NCBI GenBank assembly: GCA_964373795.1
Contig: CAYJVY010000005.1
Location: 1-13,226 of the forward strand
Length of the DNA stretch: 13,226 nucleotides
Direction of reading: 5' to 3'
Source of the DNA: an uncultured archaeon
GTDB lineage: Archaea > Iainarchaeota > Iainarchaeia > Iainarchaeales > DATDZZ01
Made by a program: the position numbers and the translations under genes. The first letter of the stretch is position 1, and every line of letters starts with the position of its first letter. Under the pieces are notes generated by a model that was not told the DNA's origin, ran no database searches, and saw nothing but the letters and a program-made list of their open reading frames with translations. This document shows positions 1-13,226 of the stretch, piece by piece.

Positions 1-75
1 CTTTTTTCCAGCTCTCTCAGATTCCTCTACTTCTCCAACCATGTACTTTCCAATCGAAATTGGCTCTAGCTTCAT
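1..75 (-). CDS. 5' end (25 codons) of an unidentified CDS continuing beyond the left edge
   Basis: The reverse complement of 1-75 reads MKLEPISIGKYMVGEVEESERAGKK with no stop before the edge. There is a second in-frame ATG at 42-40. The fragment is too short to name or to be sure it is coding. Confidence 0.25.
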   Translation of the reverse strand, partial: MKLEPISIGKYMVGEVEESERAGKK

Positions 76-102
76 AAAACCACTTTTTAATACTTTTTTC
101 AA

Positions 103-232
103 CCACGCCAGCTGCGACGTCTCGTGCGTCGAGCACGAGAGGTCACGTGACCCTTCAGCTGCCGTCCCGCGCGGCAAGCGCGATGCCCACGTCGGCCCTC
201 AGCCACGCCGGCTGAACGGCGAGCGAACCGCG
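103..232. ncRNA. GC-rich structured island; candidate small structured RNA or cis-regulatory leader, class and strand unknown
   Basis: 130 nt at about 72% G+C (94/130 by hand count), in DNA that is otherwise about 30% G+C. Stem-loops: 121-127/133-139 (CTCGTGC gtcga GCACGAG); 141-152 (GGTCACGTGACC, perfect 12-nt palindrome); 168-172/178-182 (CGCGC ggcaa GCGCG); 199-204/210-215 (TCAGCC acgcc GGCTGA). A possible closing helix is 115-120/189-194 (CGACGT/ACGTCG). CAGCTG occurs at 109-114 and 156-161. An imperfect 12-nt direct repeat CCACGCC[A/G]GCTG occurs at 103-114 and 203-214. The island lies in a divergent spacer with TATA-like boxes on both sides (84-92 on +, 250-241 on -). Confidence 0.35.
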
Positions 233-283
233 ATAATTAGTTATAAAAAGGCAGAACTACTTAATTAAATTTGCGGCTTTAAA

Positions 284-844
284 ATGAATTCATTAAACAG
301 GGTTGAAAAAATAATTCAAGCAATAAAATTTCTAGCAATTTTTTTACTCATTTTTACAGTATTATATTCTTCAATTAATTTTTACTTAATTTCAGTGGAA
401 TTAATTTATTCAAATACCTCTGCATCCATTTTAGAGTTACTTGGATTTAAAGGAAGCATTACAGTAAAAGAATCTTTAAACTCTGTGTGGATTGTTTTTC
501 CTTCAATCATAATTCAAATAAGTTTTTTATGCTCAGGATTAATTGAATTATTTGTATTAATTTCAGCTGTTCTAGCTTCAATTAATACAAAATTGGAGAA
601 AAGAGTTATTGGGGTTTTATGGAGCCTGCCAACAATATTTGTTTTCAATAATGCAAGAATTGTTATTACTAGTTTGATTTTATTTAATTCTTCTCTTGAA
701 TTCGCGGACTTAGCTCACAATTTTTTATTCAGGGCTTCCCTGCTAATAGTAATTGTAGGGTTTTATTGGATTTGGTTTTATTGGGCTGAAAAAGGCAGTC
801 TACCACTTATTTCAAAGGAATACAAACTTAATGAAAAAAATTGA
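284..844 (+). CDS. Archaeosortase/exosortase-family integral membrane transpeptidase (minimal, 186 aa)
   Basis: ATG-to-TGA ORF with four to five hydrophobic helices. The family's ordered signature residues are present in membrane-embedded contexts: Cys83 in ISFLCSGLIELF, Arg125 in FVFNNARIVITS, His145 in ADLAHNFLFR. This matches the Cys/Arg/His arrangement described for EpsH/ArtA-type sortases. Confidence 0.75.
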   Translation: MNSLNRVEKIIQAIKFLAIFLLIFTVLYSSINFYLISVELIYSNTSASILELLGFKGSITVKESLNSVWIVFPSIIIQISFLCSGLIELFVLISAVLASINTKLEKRVIGVLWSLPTIFVFNNARIVITSLILFNSSLEFADLAHNFLFRASLLIVIVGFYWIWFYWAEKGSLPLISKEYKLNEKN

Positions 845-906
845 CAAAATATTCGTCGGAAAAAAGGTTTGCAAAGCTTGTTAAATTGTTTTTCAGAAAT
901 TTTTTT

Positions 907-1518
907 ATGAATTTAAAGTTTTCAAAAAACAAAATAATATTCAAAAAATCTTTAACAGATCTAGATAAACTTGTTTTACGTTTCGTGAAAATCCTTGAAA
1001 AACTAAAAATAAATTATGTAATAATTTCTGGATATGTTGTAATTCTTTTTGGGAGAAGTAGAAATACTGAAGACATAGATTTATTTGTTGAAGAAATGCC
1101 TTTCAAAAAATTTGCAAGTTTTTGGACAGAGTTGGAAAAAGCAGGATTTGAATGCATTAATGCTTTTACTGTAGAAGAAGCATACACTGATTTTTTACAA
1201 CAAAAACTTGCAATAAGATTTGCAGAAAAAGGTTTTTTTGAACCAAACTTTGAAATAAAATTTCCACAAAATAAATGGAATTATTATAGTTTATTTCACA
1301 TAGTAAAAGTATTTTTAGAAGAAGAGGAAAAACTAAATACTTCAGAGATTGAGTTACAGATTGCATTTAAACTGTTTCTTGGCTCAGAAAAAGACTTTGA
1401 AGATGCCAGACACTTGTACAAATTTTTTCAGGAAAACTTAAATATGTCTTTACTTAAAAATCATATAAAGGAACTAAATGTTGAAAAAGAGGCTAAGGCG
1501 GTTTTATGGAAGAACTAA
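907..1518 (+). CDS. Pol-beta-superfamily nucleotidyltransferase-fold protein (MNT/AbiEii-like), 203 aa
   Basis: Contains the minimal NTase motif hG[GS]-x(9-13)-DhDh as IISGYVVILFGRSRNTEDIDLFV (Ser41-Gly42, Asp56, Asp58 counted from Met at 907). The C-terminal segment SEIELQIAFKLFLGSEKDFEDARHLY resembles the K...R.KD..D helix seen in AbiEii/DUF-type NTases. The supplied track starts at TTG 841, overlapping the upstream stop. I prefer the first ATG at 907, but the start is uncertain. Confidence 0.7.
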   Translation: MNLKFSKNKIIFKKSLTDLDKLVLRFVKILEKLKINYVIISGYVVILFGRSRNTEDIDLFVEEMPFKKFASFWTELEKAGFECINAFTVEEAYTDFLQQKLAIRFAEKGFFEPNFEIKFPQNKWNYYSLFHIVKVFLEEEEKLNTSEIELQIAFKLFLGSEKDFEDARHLYKFFQENLNMSLLKNHIKELNVEKEAKAVLWKN

Positions 1519-1670
1519 AACTAACTAAAAAAGACTTAAAAGAATTAAAAGAAGAGATGAAAAGAAACAAACAGCAAAGAATGGAATTCATTGATGCATA
1601 CGTTGAATGGTTGAAAAAAACTCCAAACAAGGTATGGAGTAAACAACAAGCAAAATATGCAAACAAATAA
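1506..1670 (+). CDS. Small (54 aa) charged helical protein, translationally coupled to the nucleotidyltransferase; function unknown
   Basis: Not in the supplied ORF track because it is below the length cutoff. ATG at 1506 overlaps the NTase stop (TAA 1516-1518) by 13 nt; stop TAA at 1668-1670. Translation: MEELKLTKKDLKELKEEMKRNKQQRMEFIDAYVEWLKKTPNKVWSKQQAKYANK. The non-repetitive C-terminal half (FIDAYVEWLKK..VWSKQQ) looks protein-like. The 69-aa antisense ORF at 1493-1702 is low complexity. Confidence 0.45.
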   Translation: MEELKLTKKDLKELKEEMKRNKQQRMEFIDAYVEWLKKTPNKVWSKQQAKYANK

Positions 1671-1700
1671 TTGTTGGATAAGTTACTCAACACTTGCTGC

Positions 1701-1712
1701 AAAAAAAATTTT
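1701..1712. terminator. A8T4 tract between convergent genes; oligo-T terminator candidate (T8 on the minus strand, T4 on the plus strand)
   Basis: aaaaaaaatttt lies in the 53-nt spacer between the stop at 1670 (+) and the PIN stop at 1724 (-). Read on the minus strand it is a T8 run 16 nt after the PIN stop codon, as in archaeal oligo-T termination. Confidence 0.3.
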
Positions 1713-1723
1713 ACTCATTTCAA

Positions 1724-2128
1724 TTAATCAATTAAGTCTATTACTTCTTCTGTTGAAAATATAAAAACCTTGTTTTGTTTTTTTAAGTTTTTTTCGTTTG
1801 ACCAAATGCTGGAAGACATTTTTAATGCAAGTGCAAAAAAGTCTACATCATTTTGATCAGAAGTTATTTTCACTGCTTCTTGCAAAAAATCCTTATATTC
1901 GTCTAATGAAATGAACTCTACAATTGTTGCTAATTCTTTCCTTAAATCATTAAATTCTTTTCTTGAAAGCTTTGCTTTTTTTATTATTTCTTTTTCATAT
2001 TTCTTTATTTCTTCCAAAGAAAACTCTGCAGAAATGAGTTCAAGTTCTTGTTTTACAAATAGATTTCTAGTTGTTCCACGCTTCCAAAAAAAAGTAAACA
2101 AAACATTGCTGTCCACAACTAGTTTCAT
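1724..2128 (-). CDS. PIN-domain ribonuclease, VapC-like toxin (134 aa)
   Basis: N-terminal MKLVVDSNVL carries the first PIN acidic residue, Asp6. Also present are ISAEFSLEE, DVDFFALAL (Asp94/Asp96 followed by a small-residue helix) and IWSNEKNL, the position of the last acidic residue, here Glu112 rather than Asp. There is a 4-nt ATGA start/stop overlap with the upstream small gene, the classic toxin-antitoxin layout. Confidence 0.85.
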   Translation of the reverse strand: MKLVVDSNVLFTFFWKRGTTRNLFVKQELELISAEFSLEEIKKYEKEIIKKAKLSRKEFNDLRKELATIVEFISLDEYKDFLQEAVKITSDQNDVDFFALALKMSSSIWSNEKNLKKQNKVFIFSTEEVIDLID

Positions 2129-2367
2129 ATCAAGCCCTTGCTTTTCAATGCTTCAAATCTTCCTTGTTTTGTTATTCTATTAAGTCCAACTGACCATTCA
2201 ACAACTTCTTTTTCTTTTTTTAGTTTTTCACGCATTTCAGTCTTCCAGTTAAGTTCTTTGGTTTTTTCAATAAGGCATTTCCTAATAAAACCCGACCAAT
2301 TAACTTCATCAAATTCAGCCATTTTCTTTTTTACTTCCTCAGGCACAGACAAGGTAATACTAACCAT
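2125..2367 (-). CDS. Ribbon-helix-helix (CopG/VapB-like) antitoxin candidate (80 aa)
   Basis: MVSITLSVPEEVKKKMAEFDEVNWSGFIRKCLIEKTKEL fits a beta-strand/helix/helix RHH pattern and is followed by a charged tail. GGAGGT lies 6 nt upstream of the ATG (2379-2374 on the minus strand). The stop overlaps the PIN start (ATGA). Confidence 0.75.
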   Translation of the reverse strand: MVSITLSVPEEVKKKMAEFDEVNWSGFIRKCLIEKTKELNWKTEMREKLKKEKEVVEWSVGLNRITKQGRFEALKSKGLI

Positions 2368-2391
2368 TTCTAAACCTCCAACATGTGTAAA

Positions 2392-2405
2392 AACATAATT
2401 ATGTT
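2392..2405 (-). promoter_or_regulatory. Perfect 14-bp palindrome AACATAATTATGTT; candidate autoregulatory operator of the RHH/PIN operon
   Basis: Read directly from the sequence. It lies 25-38 nt upstream of the RHH start codon, between the TATA-like box (2409-2420) and the Shine-Dalgarno sequence. RHH antitoxins bind inverted repeats in their own promoters. Confidence 0.4.
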
Positions 2406-2408
2406 AAA

Positions 2409-2420
2409 ATATTTAAATAT
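2409..2420 (-). promoter_or_regulatory. TATA-like box (ATATTTAAATAT) for the RHH/PIN operon
   Basis: A/T palindrome 42-53 nt upstream of the ATG at 2367. A transcription start about 25 nt downstream would leave a short leader containing GGAGGT. Confidence 0.3.
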
Positions 2421-2466
2421 ATTGTTTGATCTTGCTGCAACTATTATGAAAAACACCAGACAATTT

Positions 2467-2664
2467 TCAAACTTTTTTGAGTTCTCTAGCTAAGTGGCTT
2501 TTACTTTTGAATAAAATAGTTTTCATTCCAAGTTTTTTCGCAGGGAAAAGATTTTTTTCTTGATCATCAATGTAAACAAGTTTCTTAGGATTTAAATGAA
2601 ATTTTTTCACAAATTTTTCATAAATCTTTTTTTCGTAATCGTTTAGGTTTGTGTGTTCAGTTTT
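2467..2664 (-). pseudogene. C-terminal fragment of a HAD-superfamily hydrolase (65 codons, no start codon, no motif I/II)
   Basis: The minus-strand frame between TAG (2667-2665) and TGA (2469-2467) reads KTEHTNLNDYEKKIYEKFVKKFHLNPKKLVYIDDQEKNLFPAKKLGMKTILFKSKSHLARELKKV. This matches the HAD C-terminal pattern K(P)..iY...l..l.v.P...vfIDD...N...A..lGm..i.f (motifs III/IV). The frame has a stop just upstream and no N-terminal DxD/DxxGV motif. Confidence 0.55.
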
Positions 2665-2893
2665 CTAATTCGAAAATCTCTAATACTATTTTTTCTTTTG
2701 TTTGTACATGCCTTTTATTTCAGATGAAGAATTAAATGCTTTACCACATAAATTGAATGTTTTGGAGAAATATGATTTTGGACTTCAAAATATTGCTGGA
2801 AGAATAGTATTAGGGCGTTTAGTTAGTTGTTTACCTGCTTTTCACAAGGAAAGGAAAACCCAGCCAAGAACAAGAATCATTGGAAGAAAGTGT

Positions 2894-4678
2894 TTAATTT
2901 GCAATTTGGTCATTTAGTATTTCAAGTTTGAAAATTTTTTCATCCTGCCAATTTTCATTAGTTCTTTGCGTTGCCCATAAATATCCATTAAAATTGTTAT
3001 TACCCGGCTCCCATTCCAAATCCCAAGTTCCTTCACTTGCTGCATAAATTTTTCCAACAACTTTTCCATCCCTTGATAATTTGCATATCATGTTTCCGCA
3101 AGGCACCCAAAAATTCTTGCCATCCCAGGCAATTCCTCCCCCGCCTTCCTGCAAGGTTATTTCCCGTAAAAGTTTTCCTTCAGTAGTCATTTCATAAACA
3201 ATATTAGTAGTCCATCCCATTATCAAAAGATTTTTTCCATTCCATGCAAGACCTTTTGCACCTCTTTCTTGGTCAGGGTTTTTGAAAGAAAACAATTCTT
3301 TTCCAGTTTCCGGATCTAAAGAGTATGTTCTTTTTTCAGCAAAATCCGTTATCCATAAATTTTTTCCATCAAAAGCCATTCCCCAAGGCTGTGCACTCGG
3401 AGCCTGGAATTCCTTCAATATTTTCCCAGAATCTTGGTCAATTTTATGGATGTCTCCTGAAACCCCAGAAACCCAAACATTTTTCCCTTCCAAAGCAATG
3501 CTCCAAGTAAGCCCCAAGCCTTTTCCAAACTTTTTTACAACACTTCTTGTTTCATCATCAGGATAAACATACAAATATTTGTCTTTTTTCTGGTCTCCAG
3601 GAGTATAATTCAAATCAAATTTTTTGGCATCAGAAAAACCAAAATCAATTTTTTCAATTCCTTTTCCTTCAAAGCCTTCAGGCAGAAATTTTTCAGGGCA
3701 GTTTGTTTTTTCATTAACTGCAACAAACTTGTTTTCACTTCCTAGCAATTTATTTTCTCCTTCTCCGCATTGCAATCCAAAAAGCCAATTATTTTCCAAA
3801 TAATTGCTGTTTGCAGTGACTTCTGCAGTGTTATCCAAAGATAAACCTGAAGCATGATTTTCGCGCAGAATATTGTTTTCAACCAAAGCCTTTGTTGCAT
3901 CAACATGAATTCCATGAGTTCCAGATTTTTCAAACAAATTATTCCTTATCACTGCATCATTGAACTGCTCTAAAGCAATTCCATTATACCCGTTCTGGTA
4001 AACCATATTGAATTCAATCAAAGGCGTAGAATAAGATTCAGCATACAAACCTTCCCAGTTGTTCCATCTTATAATTGAGTGGTTAATTTTTGCATCAGAT
4101 TTCCACAAATTCACTCCTTGCTGGCCGAACTCTATAACAACATAACTAATCTGGCTGCCAGTTTTTCCAAACAATCTTATCATTCCCCAGTCACCATTCT
4201 GCGGTTCATTTGCATCAGAAGTGAAAAATATCTGTTTTTCAGGAGAACCAATTGCCTTCAAAGTTCCTTCAACAAACAAACTAGTTTTTCCTTGTTTTTT
4301 GTAATCTCTGTTATGCTTGAATTTTACAATAGTTCCTGGAAGAATTGTCAAAGTAACTCCTTCTAGAACCTCTAAAGAATCAGTTATAAAAATTTCTCCA
4401 CTCCATGTTTCATTTTTCTCGAGCCTTCCAAATTTTTCATTGTTTGTTGTCGTTTCTTCTGGCATTTCTGGATTTTCAGGCATTGTCTTATTTCCAGTTT
4501 CTGGAATTATTACATCTGTGTTTTTGTCAATTTCGTTAGAAGGATTCTGCACATTATAAAAATTATTTTCCGGAACCTTATTTTTATCTACAATATTTTC
4601 ATTTACAGGCTTATTTGAAACCTGCACGCAGCCAGAGAGAAATACTAAAACCAAAATAGCAATAAGAATTCTTTTCAT
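2894..4678 (-). CDS. Secreted lipoprotein with a right-handed parallel beta-helix (PbH1/NosD-like) domain and a C-terminal beta-propeller (594 aa)
   Basis: GGAG lies 3 nt upstream of the ATG. The N-terminus MKRILIAILVLVFLSGC has a K/R n-region, a hydrophobic core and the lipobox L-S-G-C (Cys17), followed by an N/E/P-rich linker. Residues about 95-320 carry PbH1-type repeats (TLTILPGTIVKF, NHSIIRWNNWEGLY, NMVYQNGYNGIAL, AVIRNNLFEKSGTHGIHV, ALVENNILRENHASGLSL, ANSNYLENNWLFGL). Residues about 385-580 carry blades spaced about 40 aa apart: IALEGKNVWV (394-403), MAFDGKNLWI (434-443), LAWNGKNLLI (477-486), IAWDGKNFWV (516-525) and a degenerate NFNGYLWAT. Confidence 0.9.
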   Translation of the reverse strand: MKRILIAILVLVFLSGCVQVSNKPVNENIVDKNKVPENNFYNVQNPSNEIDKNTDVIIPETGNKTMPENPEMPEETTTNNEKFGRLEKNETWSGEIFITDSLEVLEGVTLTILPGTIVKFKHNRDYKKQGKTSLFVEGTLKAIGSPEKQIFFTSDANEPQNGDWGMIRLFGKTGSQISYVVIEFGQQGVNLWKSDAKINHSIIRWNNWEGLYAESYSTPLIEFNMVYQNGYNGIALEQFNDAVIRNNLFEKSGTHGIHVDATKALVENNILRENHASGLSLDNTAEVTANSNYLENNWLFGLQCGEGENKLLGSENKFVAVNEKTNCPEKFLPEGFEGKGIEKIDFGFSDAKKFDLNYTPGDQKKDKYLYVYPDDETRSVVKKFGKGLGLTWSIALEGKNVWVSGVSGDIHKIDQDSGKILKEFQAPSAQPWGMAFDGKNLWITDFAEKRTYSLDPETGKELFSFKNPDQERGAKGLAWNGKNLLIMGWTTNIVYEMTTEGKLLREITLQEGGGGIAWDGKNFWVPCGNMICKLSRDGKVVGKIYAASEGTWDLEWEPGNNNFNGYLWATQRTNENWQDEKIFKLEILNDQIAN

Positions 4679-4759
4679 AGCTCCAATATGAAATTCAGAA
4701 ATAAATACTTTTCCATGGCTTCGAGTAATGTTTCAAAAAGTGCCGAAGCATTCTCTGTT

Positions 4760-4954
4760 ATGGCTTATAAGTTTTTAGAAGAATAAGTTTTTAGAAGACT
4801 GGCAACAGCAGACATTGCTTTTGAGGTTTCTGCAAACAATTTACAGAAGTTGTTTGAGGATTCTTCCAGTGCAAGACAGTCAAACCAAAAATTCAAAAAA
4901 ATTTTCATGCAGGTAGAAACTCCTGAAAAACTTTTGCACGATTTTTTATCCTGA
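4760..4954 (+). pseudogene. N-terminal fragment of an archease gene, interrupted by an in-frame stop and truncated
   Basis: The frame reads MAYKFLEE*VFRRLATADIAFEVSANNLQKLFEDSSSARQSNQKFKKIFMQVETPEKLLHDFLS*. YKFLE..TADIAFEV....L.KLFED and VE....LL.DFL match the archease N-terminal consensus ([FY]E.[LF][DE]HTAD[IA].......LEE.FE.....VEVE....LL..FL.E). TAA at 4784-4786 lies inside the second copy of a 16-nt tandem duplication. Only about 60 of the about 140 aa expected are present. Confidence 0.5.
4767..4798. repeat. Perfect 16-nt tandem duplication (ATAAGTTTTTAGAAGA x2)
   Basis: Read directly: 4767-4782 is identical to 4783-4798. In copy 1 the ATAAG is read as (T)AT AAG (Tyr-Lys). In copy 2 it is shifted by 16 nt and read as TAA, a stop. 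Confidence 0.95.
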
Positions 4955-5033
4955 AATTTACTGCTATTTTTAAGCCATTATTGAATAATACTCCGCTTAA
5001 ATCAAAAACAAGAATTTTTCTAAAAACAGGCAT
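4905..5033 (-). pseudogene. N-terminal fragment of a HAD-superfamily hydrolase (42 codons, then stop)
   Basis: The minus strand from ATG at 5033 reads MPVFRKILVFDLSGVLFNNGLKIAVNFRIKNRAKVFQEFLPA*. ILVFDLSGVLF is HAD motif I (hhhhDxxGVL) at the usual distance from the N-terminus. Stop is at 4907-4905. The last about 17 codons are antisense to the archease fragment, so probably only about 25 codons are HAD-derived. Confidence 0.5.
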
Positions 5034-5107
5034 TACAAAATATAGTTTAGCAATAATAAAAAACTATTTATCAAACTGCAAGATTTTGTAACCCAACTTT
5101 TAAATAC

Positions 5108-5140
5108 TTGAATAGTTTTACTTTAATATATATAAATATA
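5108..5140 (+). promoter_or_regulatory. A/T-rich promoter-like region upstream of the giant gene
   Basis: TTTAATATATATAAATATA (5122-5140) is TATA-box-like, 40-65 nt upstream of the candidate starts. It can also be read bacterial-style as TTGAAT (5108-5113), a 17-nt spacer and TATAAA (5131-5136). GGAG at 5177-5180 would serve the ATG at 5187. Confidence 0.3.
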
Positions 5141-5186
5141 GAAGAAGAAAAGATATGTAGGATTAAGCTTTTTTGTGGAGATGTTA

Positions 5187-8100
5187 ATGGCTTTAAGTGA
5201 GGTTTTTTCAGGAATTTACAATAAAGTTGAAGAAACATATTATGGGTTCTTTGATTTCCTGGAAGAAAAAGGAATTCCTCTTTCAGGATATAATGCTTTT
5301 TTAGAGGAAAAAGGAATCCCTGCAATGCCTTTCACTATTGCATTAATTTTGCTTTTAATTATTGGCTCGCTTGGAGTAATGAATTTCTCTGCAGGAGTAA
5401 ATCAAAAAATTTCTTTCATAATTAAAGACGATTTTGGAAACCCATTAAAAGATGTTAAAATAACTTTTTTGAATGAAAAAAATGAAAAAATAATTGATGC
5501 AGAGAAAAGCGATTCAACTGAATTCCTTTTACAAGGAAGGCCTTTAGGAGAAAAAATCTTAGTTGAAGCAACTAAAAAAGGATTCAAAAAAGGAACTGCA
5601 AATTTAGAAATTGAAAAAGACAAACCTGTTTCTTTAAGTTTTACTTTGGAAAGAGAAGAAGGAGGAACAATTACTGGAAAGATTAGATTAGTTGATGCTG
5701 CAACTGATTCATTGATTTCAAAAGAAAAATTAATTGTAACAGCTAAATGGGGAAAAGGAGCTGAACAAATTACAAGGCAAGCAAATTTTATTGAAAAAAC
5801 TAGTTCATGGAATTTTCCTCAAATTCCAAGAGGAGAACAAGTATTAGTTGACATTAAAGCAGACAACTATGAATCGTTTAATCAATTAATGAGGTTTGAA
5901 AACGAGGAAGCAATTACAGTTGAATTAAAGCCAAAAGCTTCTCTTGCAGGATTAAAAGTTAAATTAACTTTAATAGTTAAAGACTTAGAAAAACAAGAAC
6001 TCTTACAAGAAATTGGAGTTAGAATTGTTCAACAAGACGGAGAAGATTTCGCAAACATTGAAAAAACTAATTCAGGGCATTCAATTGAAATTCCAACAGA
6101 AATAGGGTTTAAAATTGAAGTAAGAAAAGAAGGATTCATTACTTATTTGTCTCCGGAATTTATTACAATTAAAGAAGACACTGAACAAGAAATCTTTCTT
6201 CAAAAAGGAGGAGAAAGTTTAAGAGTACTAGTATTAAATGCAATAAATAATCCAGTTGAAAACAGTTTAGTGCAATTATTTGATTTTCAAGGAAACAAAA
6301 TAGGCGAAACCCAGACAACAACCTTTGAAGGAGTTGCAAGATTTGAAGGATTAAATCCTGAAGAAAAATATTTTGTAACAGTTTTCAATGAAAAATACTT
6401 GCCTAAAAGAGTTGAAGTGCAAACAAAAACTGAAAAAGAAACCTCAATTAAATTAGAAGAACTTACTTCAACTAATTCAAGTAGTTTAGTAATTTTAGTT
6501 GAAGACAATAAAGCAGTAAAACAAGCAAACACTTCCTTATTCTTTTACGAATTAATTGAAGACAAGCAATTGCCTTTAGGAATTCCAAAAAAAGAAACAG
6601 ATTTACAAGGAACTCTTACAGTTAACGTTCCGCAAAACATTAAAGTATTAGTTAAAGCAGTTAAAGGAGGATTTGAAGGAACAGGGGAAACAGAAATTAA
6701 AACAGAGCCAGTAGTTCAATTAAAAATAGTAATAGAGTTAAGCAGCACTGCAACAAAAATTTTGTTAAAAGATTTAGTAGGAAAACCAGTTAAAGGAAAA
6801 GTAAAAATTGAGTCTCCAACAGGAGAAATATTATTTGAAGGAGAAACAAATGGAGAAGTATTCATTAATCCTGGGAACTCAAAATTTGTTAAAGTAACTT
6901 TTACAGATGCATCAGGGCAAACATTTACAGAAGAATTAAATGTTGAAAGCAGACTTGCAACAATGAAAATTAAAACAGGTGAAACAACTGGATTAGAACC
7001 AAAAATTGAATTCTTAGGAGTATTTGATGTAAGAGGAAATAAAACTGAAGGAGTTGAAAAAGGAAAAGATTATTACTTAAATTTTGAATTAACTTTTCCT
7101 GAAGGAGACTTTGAAGGAGGAATGCATGTAAGAGTTGGCCCAGATGACGTGAAATTTGTTGACTCACAGTTTGCAGGAGTAACAGGTTTTCTAGGAGATG
7201 CAGATAGATTTGTTTATGGAAGAACTTATAACGCGTTTCCTTCTCCAGGACAACAAATAATTGATTTAAGAAACCAAGGAGTTTCAGGGGAATTCAATAA
7301 ATGGATTGAATTATATTTCAATAAACCAAAAGGAAAAAAAGTAATTAAAGTAAGAGTTCAAGCAAGAGAATCAACTACAGCTGATTCATTTGAATTACAT
7401 TACAGATCGTGGATTAAAACAGATTTAGGATATATTAGAACTCCTGAAGACTCAATTCTTCAACAAGCAGCATTTAATTCCAGTAAAAGCACTTTATATG
7501 CTGATTCAATTAAGCAAGACATAAAAATTTTTGAAGGAAAAACTAATTGTAAAAAACTATTATGCGCTTCATATAATTTTGTAACAAAAAATAGAGGAAT
7601 ATTTGCAGCAGATGCATTTAAAGCAATTAAAGATGAAGTAAATGCATTAGAAATAGAGTTAACTGCAACTGAATCAGTTAAACCAGTTGTAAGCATTAAC
7701 ACTCCAAAAGATCCAATAAACGTAGTGTTAACTGGATTTGATATAAGGAATTTCACTGAATTCATTAACCAAGAAAAAGAAGACACTTCTTTAGAGATTA
7801 GTTCAATTTCTTTAAACAAAAACGAAACACTAAAAATACGCGTGTATTTTAAAGGATTAAATGAAACAACTTCCAGCATTGCAACTCAAATAGTTGCAGG
7901 AAATGAAGTAATAAAAGAAACCTTTTACTTTCCAATATTTGTTGAAAAAGAAATGAATGTAACTGTTTCTCCTTCAAATGCAACGCTTGGAGAAAACATT
8001 ACAGTTCTTGCAAAAGATGTAGACGGAATAGGAATTGAAGACGCAAAAATTGAAATTAAAAGCTTGGGAAAAAGAACAGTTAAAACAATTCAAGGAAATG

Positions 8101-11100
8101 CTTCAAATAATAGAGGTTTAAGTGGAAGATATTTTATTGAAAACAATTTAGATCCAGGAAGATATAAATTATTAGTAACTGCTCCTGGGTTTAAGTTTTT
8201 TGAAACAGAAATTGAAATAGGGAAAACAAATGTATTAAAGATTGAGTCTCCAATTAAGTTAAACATTTTAAAGGAAATAAAAAAAGCTTCAAAAACTGTA
8301 AGCTTAAGTAATACAGGAGAAGAAACAATTGAAAACATTTCATTTACTTTAATTAAAGCAGAAGAATTTGATGAAAGCTTTAAAGTAGAGGTTTCAGGGC
8401 CAACAAGTTTGCCTGGAAAAGCAAGTCCAAGCAATTTAGTAATTAAAGCTGAATTCATTGGAGAAGACATTGAAGCAAGAAAAGCATCTCATGTAAAACT
8501 AGTTGTAACTGGAAACATTGTAGGAAAATATTCAACTAAATCAGAGGAAACAATTGATTTAACCTTTAATCAAAAACTTGAAGAAAATTGCATTGAATTC
8601 AGTAAACAAAAACTTGGAGTAGCATTACTTGCAGAAACAGATTTCACTAAAGACTTTGGAGGAAGTTTTGCTTATTCAAATCCTCCACTAAATCCATTCA
8701 CTAATCCTCAAAGAAGACAAGAATTGAAAACAGTTGGATTAAGTGCAAGCAAAAACGTTGACTTTGTTGCAAAAAATAAATGCAATGAAAAAGTTGTTTT
8801 AAGGCCAGCATTTAAAGGAAATCAATTCATTAAAATTGATGCCCAAGAAATTGCTTTAGATGCAGGAGCAGAACAACCAGTAATTATTACTGTAACAAAT
8901 TTAGTTGATCAAGCAGATTTTGGAAGAAGAATTCATAACTTTGATTTAGTGTTTGAAGCAAGCCAGTTAACTAAAAGAATTCCTTTAAGTGTAAGCATTT
9001 TAAGCTCCAGGTTTGCAATCATTGCTCCAACAAATATTGAAATAGCAATTGCTCAACCAACTCCAAATGCAAAAATAAGAGTAGTAGAGCCTATAATGAT
9101 TTTAAATCAAGGAGAATTTGATATTGAAGCAATTGATTTATCCATTGACCCAACAAGTGAAGGAGGATTAAAGTTCAGCATTTTCCCAGTACAAGCATTT
9201 CCATTGCTTAGAAGAGGGCAAAGCGTTTTCCCTCCAAAAGCAATAGTAATTGAAGCAGATCAAATCAAATCAGGAGATGTTTTAACTCAAATAAATGTAT
9301 TTGGAACAATTGAAGGAAAACGCTTACTGCTTAGAACAATTAATGTAATCTCTCATGTATCAGCTCCCGGATGCATGCAAGTAAGTCCTACAACTTTTTT
9401 CTTTGAAAGAGTTAAACCAGAAGGAGTAATATCCAAAGAAATTAAAATAAAAAATTTGTGTTCAGAGCCTTTAAGAATTTCAAGTGCATCAATTGAAAGC
9501 GAGTTAGGGCAAAACCAGTTAGGAATTCGCCCAATCTCAAACCAAACAGGTTTAATTGGATTAAACTTTGAAGAAACATTTGCATTAGAATTAGGAGTTA
9601 AAGCAATCAGTCAAATAAATACTGCTCTAAAAATTAACGGAGTATTAGTTAACAGTCAAACACCTATTTCTTCAGAGCCTTTAACTGCTTCAATTAATAT
9701 TGGGCCAACATCAGTGCAAGAAGGAAAAGCAACTCAAGAATTTGAAATGAATGTATGTGAAGAGCCAAACAAAAAAGTTACAGTGAAATTTCCATTACCA
9801 ACTAATTACGCTAACCCTAATTGCTCTGAAGGATACTGTGATGCAGTGCAATTAACTGATTTCTTGGCTAAAAAAATTAATCAAAAAGTTCAAGAAATTG
9901 ATGGAAGAGTTTCACTTGAAAAAGGAGAAACAACTGGAGACTTTAAAACATTTGAAGACTTAAAGGTAAGAGAAGAAGAATTCACTGTATTCTTTCAAAA
10001 CGATAATTTAACTCCAGAAGAATTAAAGAAAGCAATTTCAGAAGACAAATACTATAAAATAAGGCATTACATTGTAGAACTAGATTCAGTTAAAGGATAT
10101 GAAGCTAAAAGAACTGGAAAAGCATTTCTTGGATCTAGAATTTTATTGGAAACAGAAAATTTCAGGGGATGCGGAAAATACATTGCCAGAATTAAAGGAA
10201 GCGTTCCAGTAATTAATGGAAAACTTAGAACTGATTCAATAATTTTATTCGTTGAAGTAACTCAAGACAAAGATGAAACAGCTGAATGCCTGCCAGTAAT
10301 TGAAAACTTTTCAAACTTTTTGCCAAGAGATCGAGATGTAGATGCAAAATCTTCTCTAGGAGTATTGCCTGGAACTGTTTTCACTGAACAACAAGGATTA
10401 GAAGAAATGGGTAAAAAAATGGCAGAAGTTTTATTCAATTCAAGTGAAAGATATGTAAACAAAAACACTAACAAGTTATTACTTGAATTAGGAGCGGGAA
10501 AAGAATTACAAGGAAGGTTATTGAAACTAGATATAGAAAAAGCTTCAATTGGAGAAGGAGCAAAAATATTAAAGGCAACAGTAAACGATAAAGTGTTTGC
10601 TTCACTGGCAAAAGAAAAACTAGTAGAAGAAGCAGCTCAAGCAATTAATGCTTTAACTCAAAAAAAGTTAAGCAATATGTGTAAATCAAATTCAGGATAT
10701 TTCTTAATTTCTTCAAGCGAAGCAGTAACAGAATCCTTAGAGATTCCAAAAGAAACACTAAAAATAAGACTGTTAAGACAAACAAGTGCAACTCCTGAAA
10801 CTCAATGCACTGCATTCAATGTTTCAGCATTAAAACCAGTAAACGAATTAGTGTACGGGTTTTCAGAAGAAGCTCATTCCTTGCTTGCAACTCAAAAAAT
10901 TAATGTATTTGAATTAAGAGAAACAAATGAAAAAGGAAATCCAGGAAACATTGTAAGCAAAATAAGCAATTTGCCAGAAGAATTCACTGCAACAAATTTA
11001 AGCAGTATAAGGGAAAGCGATTTCGTTAAAGGAAAATACAGTAGAACATTCAATGTATGCGCTTTAGGATCTGCTGCAATGGCTGCAGCTCACGGAGAAA

Positions 11101-13226
11101 AATTCTTTACATCAGTTAAAAACAACGATGCAGAATTATTTCAGCCACAAAAAATTTCAGTTGAATTAGAAGCATGTTTTTCAAATCCATTAAAAGGAGT
11201 AGAAGAGTTTTACAGAGAAATAGAATCAGATGAAGCAAAAATAAAGCTAGGAGAAGGAGAAAAAATAGTGAAATATGCTTCATTTACTTGGAAAGGAACT
11301 CCAGAAAAACTTGCATTAAAAGACTTGATTGATGAAATGCTTAAACAAGGAGTTGAAGTAAAAGGATTTACAACAAATATAACAGATCAAACTGGAGCAA
11401 ATATTGGAAAAGAGTTAAGCAAAGAACACAATGAAAAAATAAAACAAGCAAACACTCAAGGAATAATGACTCGCTATCTTCCAGCATGCGCTGCAACTGC
11501 TGCAGGACTAGGATTTTTAACTAAAGGCGGGCCTTTAGGATCTTTATTTGATGCAGTATTTGATTGCGCTATTCCAGCAATAGTAGCAGCATCCTCTTAC
11601 GATCCATTGGCTAAAACAATTTACGATAACTCTATTGGAGTAATTAAAAAAGTTTTAGGAAGTGGTTGGGAAACAGCATTAGAATTAATTGGAGGAGAAG
11701 AAAAAGTAAAAGAAGCAGTTGAAGCAGGAGTAAGCCTTGAAACAGCTTCCACTCCAGAAGAAAGGTATACTGCATTAAATGCAATTGAAAATGTTTCAGG
11801 AAAAGAATTAGATGAATTCTTTGAAGGCGAATACGGAGACATGCAAAAATTAGTTGCAGAAGGAACAATTGAATCCACTATTGCAGGAGCAGCTGCTGCA
11901 GGAACAAGAGGAAGAATTCTTCATCCAAGGCTAGTGAAAGGATTTGCTTCACAATTATCAGATCAATACGTGAATGCATTCATTAAAGAAAGAGGTTTAA
12001 CAGGAGAAGCAGCAAAACAATTCAGAACATCTGCTGGAAAAGTTTTAGAAGAAAGACTTGCAAAAGCATTAGAAGCAGATGCATCAAAAATAATTGGAAA
12101 AAGAGGGGCAAGAGTTACAACAGGGTATTTAAGTAATCAATTAAAAACAGTTGCAAATCAACCAGACTTTTTAGACAAGGCTTGGGAAGAATTTGTTAAA
12201 GACACTAAAAAGATTCCAGCAGGAGCAACAATGCATCCAGCACTAACTGAATTAAGAGGAACTGGAGCTCCTGTAGGAACTCCTGCAACTCCATTTCAAG
12301 CAGAAGTAGAAGACATTTTAGAAAAAACAGTTAAAACAAAAACTACAGCTATTGCAAACAATTTAGGAGATGTAACAGGGCTTCCAAGGCAAAACATTCC
12401 AATTACTCCTGGAGGATTACCAACAGGAAGAAATGTAGGAGCATTCAGAGACTCAATTAGAGATGGTTTGACTTCAAGAGCAATTGCAAAACTTCAAGCA
12501 GAAGGAGTTGAAATAACTACTCAACTAGAAACAGAAATTAGAACATTTATGCATACACAATCCAGAACAATTCCAGTTCAATCTGAAAACATATTTGCTC
12601 CAAGAGGGACTACAGCTGTAACACAGTATTATATGGATCTTCCAGACAATCAAGCAAAAACAATGGTAAACAATGCTTTAAACAATACAAGAATTAAGGA
12701 TGAAATTGCTCAAGCTTTATACGAACACAATGACACTTTAGAAGCAATTGAAAAACAAGCTGCAAACAAGTTTTTGAAAGACTCTGCAGATAATGCATTA
12801 GAATCTGCAAGCAAAGTAACTACTACTAAGAAAATTGCAAGGCTTGGAAAAAATTTATTTACAGGAGCTGCAAGAGGATTCTTTATTGGAAGCATTGCAA
12901 ACTTTGCAGGACTAGGCGCATGGAAAGCATTCTTTTCAAACGGAGAAGGAGCAAAACCATTAGATTCAATTACAGTAATTGGCGCAAGAACAGATGTAAT
13001 TGAAGGCCTCCAAGGAAATGAAATGCAAAACGTGGAATTAGATAAAGAACATGTATTCAAATTAATTTACTCTAAACCAGATTTAAAGCAAGAAAAATAC
13101 ACTTTAGAAATTCAATTAATTGATCCATTAAGAACAGAGGTTCCAAGAAATGCGAAATGGATTTCTTGTAACACAAATCCTGCAGCAGAAGAAAGAGACT
13201 GGAAATACAGAGAAATAAAAGAATAA
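5187..13226 (+). CDS. Giant (about 2,680 aa) membrane-anchored surface protein with carboxypeptidase-regulatory-like/Ig-like and PapD/ASH-like beta-sandwich arrays and a novel C-terminal hydrophobic/helical module
   Basis: The frame is open for 8,052 nt (5175-13226, stop TAA at 13224-13226) in AT-rich DNA where stops are frequent, so it is certainly coding. Candidate starts are GTG 5175, ATG 5181 and ATG 5187. ATG 5187 has GGAG 6 nt upstream and is preferred. There is one strong TM helix (aa 52-70 in track numbering). Six tandem modules of about 85 aa (aa 79-600), with a seventh at aa 926-1016, fit the CarboxypepD_reg-like pattern, for example ISFIIKDDFGNPLKDVKITF...ILVEATKKGFK and SLRVLVLNAINNPVENSLVQLF...YFVTVFNEKYLP. 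Four modules of about 100 aa (aa 1027-1510) have 'v.l.N.G...l.i' sandwich patterns. Confidence 0.95.
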   Translation: MALSEVFSGIYNKVEETYYGFFDFLEEKGIPLSGYNAFLEEKGIPAMPFTIALILLLIIGSLGVMNFSAGVNQKISFIIKDDFGNPLKDVKITFLNEKNEKIIDAEKSDSTEFLLQGRPLGEKILVEATKKGFKKGTANLEIEKDKPVSLSFTLEREEGGTITGKIRLVDAATDSLISKEKLIVTAKWGKGAEQITRQANFIEKTSSWNFPQIPRGEQVLVDIKADNYESFNQLMRFENEEAITVELKPKASLAGLKVKLTLIVKDLEKQELLQEIGVRIVQQDGEDFANIEKTNSGHSIEIPTEIGFKIEVRKEGFITYLSPEFITIKEDTEQEIFLQKGGESLRVLVLNAINNPVENSLVQLFDFQGNKIGETQTTTFEGVARFEGLNPEEKYFVTVFNEKYLPKRVEVQTKTEKETSIKLEELTSTNSSSLVILVEDNKAVKQANTSLFFYELIEDKQLPLGIPKKETDLQGTLTVNVPQNIKVLVKAVKGGFEGTGETEIKTEPVVQLKIVIELSSTATKILLKDLVGKPVKGKVKIESPTGEILFEGETNGEVFINPGNSKFVKVTFTDASGQTFTEELNVESRLATMKIKTGETTGLEPKIEFLGVFDVRGNKTEGVEKGKDYYLNFELTFPEGDFEGGMHVRVGPDDVKFVDSQFAGVTGFLGDADRFVYGRTYNAFPSPGQQIIDLRNQGVSGEFNKWIELYFNKPKGKKVIKVRVQARESTTADSFELHYRSWIKTDLGYIRTPEDSILQQAAFNSSKSTLYADSIKQDIKIFEGKTNCKKLLCASYNFVTKNRGIFAADAFKAIKDEVNALEIELTATESVKPVVSINTPKDPINVVLTGFDIRNFTEFINQEKEDTSLEISSISLNKNETLKIRVYFKGLNETTSSIATQIVAGNEVIKETFYFPIFVEKEMNVTVSPSNATLGENITVLAKDVDGIGIEDAKIEIKSLGKRTVKTIQGNASNNRGLSGRYFIENNLDPGRYKLLVTAPGFKFFETEIEIGKTNVLKIESPIKLNILKEIKKASKTVSLSNTGEETIENISFTLIKAEEFDESFKVEVSGPTSLPGKASPSNLVIKAEFIGEDIEARKASHVKLVVTGNIVGKYSTKSEETIDLTFNQKLEENCIEFSKQKLGVALLAETDFTKDFGGSFAYSNPPLNPFTNPQRRQELKTVGLSASKNVDFVAKNKCNEKVVLRPAFKGNQFIKIDAQEIALDAGAEQPVIITVTNLVDQADFGRRIHNFDLVFEASQLTKRIPLSVSILSSRFAIIAPTNIEIAIAQPTPNAKIRVVEPIMILNQGEFDIEAIDLSIDPTSEGGLKFSIFPVQAFPLLRRGQSVFPPKAIVIEADQIKSGDVLTQINVFGTIEGKRLLLRTINVISHVSAPGCMQVSPTTFFFERVKPEGVISKEIKIKNLCSEPLRISSASIESELGQNQLGIRPISNQTGLIGLNFEETFALELGVKAISQINTALKINGVLVNSQTPISSEPLTASINIGPTSVQEGKATQEFEMNVCEEPNKKVTVKFPLPTNYANPNCSEGYCDAVQLTDFLAKKINQKVQEIDGRVSLEKGETTGDFKTFEDLKVREEEFTVFFQNDNLTPEELKKAISEDKYYKIRHYIVELDSVKGYEAKRTGKAFLGSRILLETENFRGCGKYIARIKGSVPVINGKLRTDSIILFVEVTQDKDETAECLPVIENFSNFLPRDRDVDAKSSLGVLPGTVFTEQQGLEEMGKKMAEVLFNSSERYVNKNTNKLLLELGAGKELQGRLLKLDIEKASIGEGAKILKATVNDKVFASLAKEKLVEEAAQAINALTQKKLSNMCKSNSGYFLISSSEAVTESLEIPKETLKIRLLRQTSATPETQCTAFNVSALKPVNELVYGFSEEAHSLLATQKINVFELRETNEKGNPGNIVSKISNLPEEFTATNLSSIRESDFVKGKYSRTFNVCALGSAAMAAAHGEKFFTSVKNNDAELFQPQKISVELEACFSNPLKGVEEFYREIESDEAKIKLGEGEKIVKYASFTWKGTPEKLALKDLIDEMLKQGVEVKGFTTNITDQTGANIGKELSKEHNEKIKQANTQGIMTRYLPACAATAAGLGFLTKGGPLGSLFDAVFDCAIPAIVAASSYDPLAKTIYDNSIGVIKKVLGSGWETALELIGGEEKVKEAVEAGVSLETASTPEERYTALNAIENVSGKELDEFFEGEYGDMQKLVAEGTIESTIAGAAAAGTRGRILHPRLVKGFASQLSDQYVNAFIKERGLTGEAAKQFRTSAGKVLEERLAKALEADASKIIGKRGARVTTGYLSNQLKTVANQPDFLDKAWEEFVKDTKKIPAGATMHPALTELRGTGAPVGTPATPFQAEVEDILEKTVKTKTTAIANNLGDVTGLPRQNIPITPGGLPTGRNVGAFRDSIRDGLTSRAIAKLQAEGVEITTQLETEIRTFMHTQSRTIPVQSENIFAPRGTTAVTQYYMDLPDNQAKTMVNNALNNTRIKDEIAQALYEHNDTLEAIEKQAANKFLKDSADNALESASKVTTTKKIARLGKNLFTGAARGFFIGSIANFAGLGAWKAFFSNGEGAKPLDSITVIGARTDVIEGLQGNEMQNVELDKEHVFKLIYSKPDLKQEKYTLEIQLIDPLRTEVPRNAKWISCNTNPAAEERDWKYREIKE

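Follow-up and report, generated by a model that had tools for sequence, protein, structure and literature searches.

A conserved putative hydrophobic hairpin and zipper helix near the C-terminus of a giant archaeal surface protein, candidate elements of a distal tip

What does a giant archaeal surface protein carry at the end farthest from its membrane anchor, and could that end act on another cell? The question is raised by contig CAYJVY010000005.1 of an uncultured member of the Iainarchaeota (assembly GCA_964373795.1), analysed here over 13,226 nucleotides (nt), positions 1 to 13,226 of the forward strand, a stretch referred to below as the window. Its last and longest gene, called giant 1, encodes a protein that runs from an N-terminal hydrophobic helix through a long, mainly beta-sandwich ectodomain to a C-terminal module of 583 amino acids (aa), in which two Gly/Ala-rich hydrophobic segments are separated by a long linker and followed by a tail. 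An initial annotation, made from the sequence alone, offered two topologies for this module. In one, both segments cross the cell's own membrane and an Arg-rich linker lies in the cytoplasm; in the other, the N-terminus is the anchor and the module, lying distally, inserts into the membrane of a partner cell. Comparison with relatives and hydropathy scoring disfavour the first of these, and what is left of the second is a tentative proposal, that the module is a fibre tip which may engage another cell's envelope.

The positions that the annotation assigned to the two segments are exact. Segment 1, YLPACAATAAGLGFLTKGGPLGSLFDAVFDCAIPAIVAASSY, spans aa 2101-2142 (nt 11475-11600) and segment 2, LFTGAARGFFIGSIANFAGLGAWKAFF, spans aa 2561-2587 (nt 12855-12935), in the numbering of a 2,683-aa product that opens at GTG 5175 and is used throughout. 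Word-index searches with the module alone and with a 21-sequence module alignment found no homologues. Exhaustive phmmer over 1.8 billion representative proteins gave six weak relatives, among them three other giants that align collinearly with the window protein from end to end (identity 26-32%). A genome scan located relatives at 30 loci, mostly annotated Ca. Iainarchaeum, with one Micrarchaeota and several entries labelled uncultured archaeon, and a metagenome scan contributed 10 further loci. Segment profiles recover both segments in all of the roughly 23 complete orthologues (19 of 19 from genomes, plus 4 from metagenomes), and also in further database proteins. When four proteins are aligned, identity to the window protein is 35% in segment 1 and 32% in segment 2, against 14% in the linker and 15% in the tail. 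The two segments are conservation islands in a fast-evolving C-terminal region, not chance features, and it is this conservation, not hydropathy, that sets them apart from chance. Homologues keep both segments rather than swapping the module, the spacer between the segments drifts, and the extreme C-terminus varies. The module is found only in giant 1: tandem paralogous giants share its N-terminal anchor region but lack the C-terminal module.

The module belongs to no family that could be named. A match to a known soluble domain family would have spoken against the membrane-directed readings of the initial annotation, and the searches matched no family of any kind: no Pfam family at E up to 0.1, no NCBIfam family, and no PDB sequence at E up to 10. 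The Pfam glycine-zipper families (Rick_17kDa_Anti, Gly-zipper_Omp, Gly-zipper_YMGG and related ones) gave no match in 21 orthologous modules at E up to 0.01. A PHROGs scan of the 21 modules returned no tape-measure family, the matches being a transglycosylase family, at the SLT tail of a relative, and two marginal unannotated ones. An NCBIfam match to the type III translocon model PRK15362 (E=0.052; score 12 bits, cut-off 540) falls in the linker, is insignificant and was rejected as noise. Separate horizontal acquisition of the module was also rejected, since GC content at third codon positions is flat along the gene (0.12-0.17).

Segment 1 is built around a turn. The consensus of 29 family sequences reads K..Y.GAC...S....G....DC..PA, with two near-invariant cysteines, C2105 and C2131, about equally far from a TKGGP turn; in 15 of 16 orthologues the cysteines are 23-28 residues apart and roughly symmetric about a Gly/Pro-rich turn. 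The second arm holds a conserved D2130-C-x-x-P2134 motif. In both AlphaFold2 models, which are of low confidence here, the long helix of segment 1 is interrupted at the KGG turn, beyond which a second helix begins. This arrangement suggests an alpha-hairpin whose arms would be held together by a disulfide or by close packing of the cysteines. The DC motif was also weighed as a thioester of the CGEQ type or as an autoproteolytic site, and both roles were dropped for lack of a motif match. Directly N-terminal to the hairpin lies a basic stretch, EKIKQANTQGIMTR. Summed over 16 orthologues, there are 34 Lys or Arg and 14 Asp or Glu in the 12 residues that precede segment 1, and 23 and 29 in the 12 that follow it (Wilcoxon p=0.02).

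More distant homologues depart from this design. P0017, P0019, P0020 (named Micrarchaeota by its source) and P0023 share the N-terminal anchor and its EEKGIP motif, and in place of the 42-residue hairpin they have a hydrophobic region of 150-200 residues, rich in Gly, Ala and Cys, that ends NDCIAGG...ESLLSAVP. A second conserved hydrophobic stretch, LLPLLFHIDIRPV, stands ahead of their Cys-rich C-terminal domain.

In segment 2 the conserved feature is a face of small residues. The glycine zipper G2564-xxx-G2568-xxx-G2572 that the initial annotation had picked out is present in the window protein, with small residues at positions i, i+4 and i+8, but G2564 is not conserved. The pattern that the family retains is shifted, G2568-x3-G2572-x3-N2576-x2-G2579, with W2583 following, and the consensus of 24 sequences, K.L.KG...GA..N.AG..A[YW], has its G, N and G each in about 90%. 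A Gly/Gly/Asn/Gly face of this kind would be suited to tight helix-helix packing or oligomerisation. Hydropathy argues against its lying in a constitutive transmembrane (TM) helix.

Are the segments hydrophobic enough to span a membrane? Both were scored on the Hessa and Kyte-Doolittle (KD) scales over 19-residue windows, the mark of a TM helix being an unbroken apolar stretch of at least about 19 residues, with a KD19 value of about 1.6 or more and an insertion energy near or below zero. The N-terminal anchor of the window protein has a KD19 of 2.35-2.41 and a Hessa sum of -1.2, within a run of 31 uncharged residues. A TM helix is present there in all orthologues with an intact N-terminus (Hessa -1 to -6, median -3.6; KD19 2.4 to 3.35). 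Positive controls, taken from the archaeosortase-like protein of the window and the platform protein of a relative, give Hessa sums of -2.2 to +1.1 and KD19 of at least 1.95, with one less hydrophobic helix at +3.8 and 1.72. The two halves of segment 1 in the window protein score +5.8 and +7.7 (KD19 1.18 and 1.70), and across orthologues the segment is borderline, at +1.7 to +8.1 (median +3.7) with a median KD19 of 1.6 and a best of 1.9. Segment 2 scores +5.2 (KD19 1.25) in the window protein and lies between +4.9 and +9.5 (median +7.4), with KD19 of 0.66-1.30 (median 0.94), in all 19 orthologues scored. Neither segment has an uncharged run longer than 16 residues, against 31 for the anchor. 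Segment 1 is split by its Gly/Pro turn and holds a conserved Asp, and in several orthologues the apolar stretch of segment 2 is, by our own count, only about 12-14 residues between charges, as in KEGAFGLLSNYIGMKAYDW. The label "hydrophobic" given to the segments therefore holds in part: they are the most hydrophobic stretches after the N-terminal TM helix, but the KD19 of segment 2 is exceeded by two beta-rich ectodomain stretches (1.33 and 1.34). Both segments are too short and too polar for translocon insertion as membrane anchors. Their flanking charges point the same way, the N-flank being more basic than the C-flank in both segments, which contradicts an alternating TM topology.

Further information on topology comes from the tails of relatives, which range from 79 to 424 aa in length. 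The tail of P0007 (locus L021) contains a Pfam SLT lytic transglycosylase domain (2.3e-10), and that of P0016 an NlpC/P60 endopeptidase (residues 2979-3065, 2.7e-23). Most other orthologue tails have in common a Cys-containing helical domain of about 130 residues that is weakly SLT-like. Against the SLT domain of P0007 it reaches an hhalign probability of 37% (pairwise E=3.5e-4), and a tail profile searched against the PDB gives weak matches, the best being MltC at E=0.38, so that a relationship to SLT enzymes is suggestive only. About 30 sequences were sampled, and between these orthologues the C-terminal domain varies among SLT, NlpC/P60, SLT-like and none. Peptidoglycan hydrolases must be extracellular, and they have no substrate in the archaeon itself. 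The module is placed outside the cell because relatives carry such enzymes in their tails, and the whole of it, exported behind an ectodomain of about 2,000 residues, is most likely extracellular because the segments are too short and too polar for translocon insertion.

The 96-aa tail that was annotated after segment 2 is present in the window protein. It contains a beta domain at about nt 13035-13169 (...HVFKLIYSKP...YTLEIQLI...VPRNAKWISC), drawn as three strands, at low confidence, in an AlphaFold2 model. Acidic motifs of the DNDGD type are present in most orthologue tails. Those of L021, L002, L001, L009 and L013 carry a DGxDNDGDxxxDED motif between segment 2 and the beta domain, which the window protein lacks; it resembles calcium-binding sites in our reading, and in P0007 (L021) it precedes the SLT domain.

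The same evidence bears on the linker between the segments: given an extracellular tail and a segment 2 that does not span the membrane, it would lie outside as well. Its behaviour fits an exposed region: within the module it is conserved least and varies most in length (25% gaps in the four-protein alignment; 81-591 aa between the two segment matches in orthologues), has no Cys in the window protein, and contains Thr/Pro/Gly-rich tracts in orthologues such as P0007, P0014, P0015 and P0016. The initial annotation had described a switch to A/G/T/R-rich composition after about 2,000 residues and a helical, Arg-rich domain, and had taken the Arg content as a sign of a cytoplasmic location under the positive-inside rule. 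Alanine is indeed enriched, making up 5.8% of the ectodomain and 12.0% of the linker (odds ratio 2.2, p=2.6e-5), but Gly and Thr increase only slightly, and the Ala-rich composition begins already near aa 1800. The rise in Arg, from 3.1% to 4.8%, is not significant (p=0.10), and Lys plus Arg stand at about 12.5% against 12.7%. For helicity the sole basis is a pair of AlphaFold2 models of very low confidence, with predicted local distance difference test (pLDDT) values of 40 and 44. The positive-inside argument does not hold up: neither Arg nor Lys plus Arg is enriched in the linker, and segment 1 has its basic flank toward the ectodomain.

What could an exported module of this kind do? The reading to which we lean, at somewhat less than an even chance, is that it forms a distal tip engaging another cell's envelope, in which a variable helical spacer joins a Cys-bracketed hydrophobic hairpin to a glycine/Asn-zipper helix. 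Such engagement is proposed because a marginally hydrophobic core is coupled to hydrolases that have no substrate in the archaeon. The N-terminal helix would anchor a giant fibre, some 2,000 residues of mainly beta-sandwich stalk would project outward (a length of the order of 100 nm by rough estimate), and the C-terminal module would be the distal, extracellular end. In order, it would present the basic patch and Cys-bracketed alpha-hairpin, a fast-evolving helical spacer, a short helix with its Gly/Gly/Asn/Gly face and a small beta domain, after which most relatives would add a peptidoglycan hydrolase domain. Hairpin and zipper helix would be the conserved working core, conditionally membrane-active or oligomerising, and the tip would engage the envelope of another cell, probably a bacterium, with wall-cutting enzymes assisting in relatives. 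The second topology of the initial annotation thus survives in its placement of a distal, partner-engaging module, which is plausible and for which the hydrolase tails of relatives are circumstantial support; insertion into a partner's membrane would be a further, hypothetical step. Could the module go further and work as a contact-dependent device? In that case a Cys-stapled, fusion-loop-like hairpin would be presented on a fibre built beside a type-IV-pilus-like machine, a terminal hydrolase would, in most lineages, cut the wall, and hairpin and zipper would then insert and oligomerise in the membrane of a bacterial partner so as to tether it, open it, perhaps by forming a pore, or fuse with it. 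This extension is distinctly unlikely on present evidence.

Several observations weigh against a tip that engages other cells. The window protein itself has a tail without a wall-hydrolase domain (no match to SLT, PF01464), and P0003 (locus L008) and several other family members likewise end in enzyme-free tails. Most SLT-like tails show no obvious catalytic Glu-Ser when the alignment is read, and because of this they may only bind glycan. The contig of the window lacks the usual downstream genes of relatives. No membrane-active family matched the module, and AlphaFold2 models of it are unusable (pLDDT 40 without an alignment, 44 with an 11-sequence alignment). The hydrophobicity scores are simple sums of scale values with no positional weighting, and not the output of a trained topology predictor. 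Finally, we know of no host for Iainarchaeota, and the lineage may be free-living.

Could the two segments be purely structural instead? They might serve for oligomerisation or as the buried core in a helical domain that lies outside the cell and never touches a membrane, such as a bundle tying several fibres to one another, with the linker as an inserted variable subdomain. The marginal hydrophobicity suits this explanation, segment 2 being no more hydrophobic than two ectodomain stretches, and a face of small residues and Asn fits the packing of soluble helices as well as that of membrane helices. The spacing between the segments, which falls to 81 residues in L004, means that they could pack together, and the lack of a match to any membrane-active family is in keeping with such a role. 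What a structural role accounts for less readily is the basic N-flank beside an apolar Gly/Ala-rich stretch in each segment, which is typical of membrane-interacting peptides. The 150-200 residue Gly/Ala/Cys-rich region of the Micrarchaeota homologues would be hard to bury in a soluble fold, and the module is regularly coupled to wall-lytic enzymes. A structural role, though somewhat unlikely in our estimate, is a serious competitor of the tip.

Segment 1 alone might be a re-entrant or hairpin anchor in the cell's own membrane. The ectodomain would then form a loop tethered at each end, and everything behind segment 1, from the linker through segment 2 to the tail, would be on the cell surface. 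Its length of about 42 residues with a central turn would suit a helical hairpin, some orthologues reach a KD19 of 1.9 and a Hessa sum of +1.7, and a hydrolase tail would stay outside. In the window protein, however, the halves score +5.8 and +7.7 and contain a Lys, two Asp and the Pro-Gly turn; a hairpin with paired cysteines suggests a disulfide in an exported domain, and a wall hydrolase held at the producer's membrane presumably could not reach the wall of another cell. Such an anchor is quite improbable. Very improbable is the first topology of the initial annotation, two single-pass TM helices with the linker of about 420 residues in the cytoplasm and the tail outside: it too would leave the enzyme tail outside, and the flanks of segment 2 (median net charge +2 on the N side and -1 on the C side in 15 orthologues) fit an in-to-out orientation, but segment 2 stays at Hessa +4.9 to +9.5 and KD19 0.66-1.30 in every orthologue, the supposed cytoplasmic domain is not enriched in Arg or in Lys plus Arg and is the least conserved, most length-variable part, with Thr/Pro-rich tracts in orthologues, and the basic side of segment 1 faces the ectodomain, the wrong orientation by the positive-inside rule.

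If the preferred reading, a distal tip engaging another cell's envelope, is taken as a working model, it can be set beside several known systems. Giant repetitive bacterial adhesins of the RTX/BIg type (SiiE, LapA, MpIBP) and the giant membrane proteins of Vampirococcus share the plan of an anchor, a long beta-sandwich extender and a distal module. The parallel extends to an ultrasmall, probably partner-dependent lineage and, in relatives, to pilus genes nearby. Unlike the giant adhesins, giant 1 belongs to an archaeon and is anchored by an N-terminal TM helix instead of an outer-membrane retention module; its distal unit is a hairpin and zipper instead of a lectin or RTX region, and the module has no sequence homology to theirs. 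Hydrophobic segments together with a lytic transglycosylase, M23 or NlpC/P60 domain are also carried by phage tape-measure and tail-tip proteins. The module is like them in its long Ala-rich helical region, its two marginally hydrophobic Gly-rich segments and, in relatives, its C-terminal peptidoglycan hydrolase, an analogy that suggests an envelope-penetrating role. It is unlike them in matching no tape-measure PHROG and in belonging to a cellular surface fibre, not a virion.

Fusion and pore-forming proteins offer looser parallels. Class I viral fusion glycoproteins contain helical repeats and a hydrophobic internal fusion loop bracketed by cysteines. Giant 1 likewise has a Cys-bracketed, Gly/Ala-rich hydrophobic element with a basic patch before it and a long, possibly helical region after it, but its anchor is at the opposite, N-terminal end and there is no homology, so the likeness is one of analogy only. 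Colicin-type pore-forming domains and type III translocators use a hydrophobic helical hairpin, and the marginally hydrophobic hairpin of about 40 residues beside predicted helices is reminiscent of these; the only sequence signal, in contrast, is the insignificant PRK15362 match, which is in the linker and not in the hairpin. To CdiA-type polymorphic toxins giant 1 bears a loose resemblance, as a very long surface protein that has a conserved module ahead of a C-terminal domain differing between relatives. Here, unlike in those toxins, the domains exchanged are wall hydrolases instead of nucleases or toxins of other kinds, giant 1 is followed in relatives by a conserved pilin-like gene instead of a variable immunity gene, and no pre-toxin domain was detected. 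On the features by which membership can be tested, the module falls outside each of these families.

The module bears on the ways in which DPANN archaea attach to other cells, feed on them or kill them. Large lytic murein transglycosylases of DPANN archaea have been read as predatory potential or as a sign that bacteria are attacked (PMC9723730), and peptidoglycan hydrolases of archaea have been described that kill bacteria (PMC12352652). The episymbiotic CPR bacterium Vampirococcus has giant membrane proteins (PMC8080830), and DPANN pilus-like islands with "specific surface proteins" have been described (PMC6393860). Full-text literature searches found no description of the hairpin/zipper module. 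A giant surface fibre with a distal tip is a known plan; the hairpin/zipper module is an unannotated domain family. A lineage-wide module is now defined, comprising the hairpin Y.GAC...DC..PA and the zipper helix KG...GA..N.AG, in the largest protein of a pilus-like locus, and it provides concrete constructs and residues for asking whether the archaea that encode it physically break through the envelopes of bacteria. The "large lytic transglycosylases" found earlier in DPANN genomes, and loosely described there (PMC9723730), would be tied to a defined architecture as well, if, as we infer, these are the same proteins. Were the contact-dependent device real, DPANN archaea would possess an apparatus of a new class, one that breaches envelopes across domains; should the segments be merely structural, their description still corrects a tempting misannotation of giant 1 as a three-pass membrane protein.

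Features of the window, in order of position
Feature	Coordinates	Strand	Remarks
Archaeosortase/exosortase-family gene, 186 aa	284..844	+	TIGR04178 5.2e-11, above cut-off; Pfam Exosortase_EpsH 1.2e-5
225-aa open reading frame	841..1518	+	4-nt overlap with the sortase gene
PIN_2 domain protein	1724..2128	-	PIN_2 1.3e-21
80-aa open reading frame	2125..2367	-	RHH-like (weak); 4-nt overlap with the PIN_2 gene
594-aa protein	2894..4678	-	
Giant surface protein gene (giant 1)	5187..13226	+	From the open reading frame list and translation; 2,679 aa from ATG 5187
Conserved N-terminal region with duplicated EEKGIP motif	5262..5333	+	GIPAMPF at its end adjoins the anchor helix
N-terminal transmembrane anchor, FTIALILLLIIGSLGVMNF	5331..5387	+	Sole TM-grade segment of giant 1
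Ectodomain block, about aa 605-780	6987..7514	+	
Basic flank, EKIKQANTQGIMTR	11433..11474	+	Directly N-terminal to segment 1
Segment 1, hydrophobic Gly/Ala-rich helix-turn-helix	11475..11600	+	aa 2101-2142
Variable Ala/Thr-rich linker, 418 aa, with Pro/Thr/Gly-rich breaks	11601..12854	+	Helical by low-confidence prediction
Segment 2 with basic lead-in (KKIARLGKNL...)	12828..12935	+	Short apolar helix
Tail, 96 aa	12936..13223	+	Small conserved beta domain only; TAA after

The two possible starts of giant 1 differ by four codons, GTG 5175 giving the 2,683-aa version. A near-identical database protein, P0001, begins at the ATG that matches position 5187. The last nucleotide of the window is the end of the stop codon (TAA). 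Two antisense open reading frames within the module, at 11621-11878 and 12710-13060, are spurious, the forward frame being conserved as protein across the family. No Rfam family was found anywhere in the window, and no tandem repeat within 11000-13226.

Ahead of the anchor, the EEKGIP region is the best-conserved part of giant 1, at 45% identity among four aligned giants, and presumably cytoplasmic. The motif recurs in the paralogous giants 2 and 3 and in the Micrarchaeota homologues, and it might be a recognition site for a sortase-like enzyme or for the pilus machinery. Compared with pilin class III signals, in which a [K/R]-G/A cleavage motif stands ahead of a hydrophobic helix, the N-terminus has the sequence EEKG-IPAMPF followed by a TM helix, after an unusually long leader of 46 residues. 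Processing by a prepilin peptidase was considered and set aside, as the N that often replaces G at position -1 in the paralogous giants argues against it. At the other end, the C-terminus is hydrophilic (...NPAAEERDWKYREIKE) and no TM-grade segment occurs beyond aa 71, so giant 1 lacks a sorting signal of the PGF-CTERM type, with its three parts of a short motif, a TM helix and a basic cluster.

Matches to CarboxypepD_reg, Big_1-like and MG3-like domains fall within the stalk. One block of the ectodomain stands out, FPEGDFEGGMHVRVG...GRTYNA...NKWIELYF, with 44% identity across giants, while the remainder of the stalk is much less conserved. No family matches this block, which is a second unannotated conserved domain.

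In relatives the giants are embedded in a pilus-like locus. Counting by clusters of open reading frames across loci, with Pfam assignments made on L019, a T2SSE-type ATPase cluster is present in 12 loci and a T2SSF-type platform protein cluster in 10, and the conserved locus (L019, L021, L025, L002, L027 and others) has at least five small proteins with pilin-type N-termini. Its members are T2SSE, T2SSF, the pilin-like genes and a sortase-like gene, then giant 1 with a pilin-like protein behind it, then giant 2, a small membrane protein and giant 3, and the loci hold one or two giants paralogous to giant 1. The gene downstream of giant 1 encodes a conserved pilin-like protein of 370-560 aa (KGFTLFTALV...). 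The archaeosortase-family cluster is represented in 17 loci, as a rule directly ahead of giant 1, and no giant carries a C-terminal sorting signal. The 186-aa member in the window is shorter than typical sortases.

The region beyond the window was read from a Logan contig of 14.75 kb (L031, run ERR3478686), whose giant differs from that of the window by a few residues. In place of the usual downstream genes this contig has, in its own numbering, an 86-aa RelE/ParE-like open reading frame at 13126-13386 on the reverse strand, identified by inspection of the sequence, and, at 13586-14752 on the forward strand, a secreted, Cys-rich, Pro/Thr-tailed protein with a signal peptide. Between the sortase and giant genes of the window, the PIN_2 protein and its neighbour, which the contig record labels weakly RHH-like, form a VapBC-type toxin-antitoxin pair. 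The 225-aa open reading frame that overlaps the sortase gene is weakly nucleotidyltransferase-like (DUF2204 0.0056; Lnu-type 0.01). The 594-aa protein encoded on the reverse strand ahead of giant 1 combines a weakly lipoprotein-like N-terminus, a right-handed beta-helix of the NosD type (2.6e-15) and a weak BamB/PQQ-like propeller, and is probably another surface protein.

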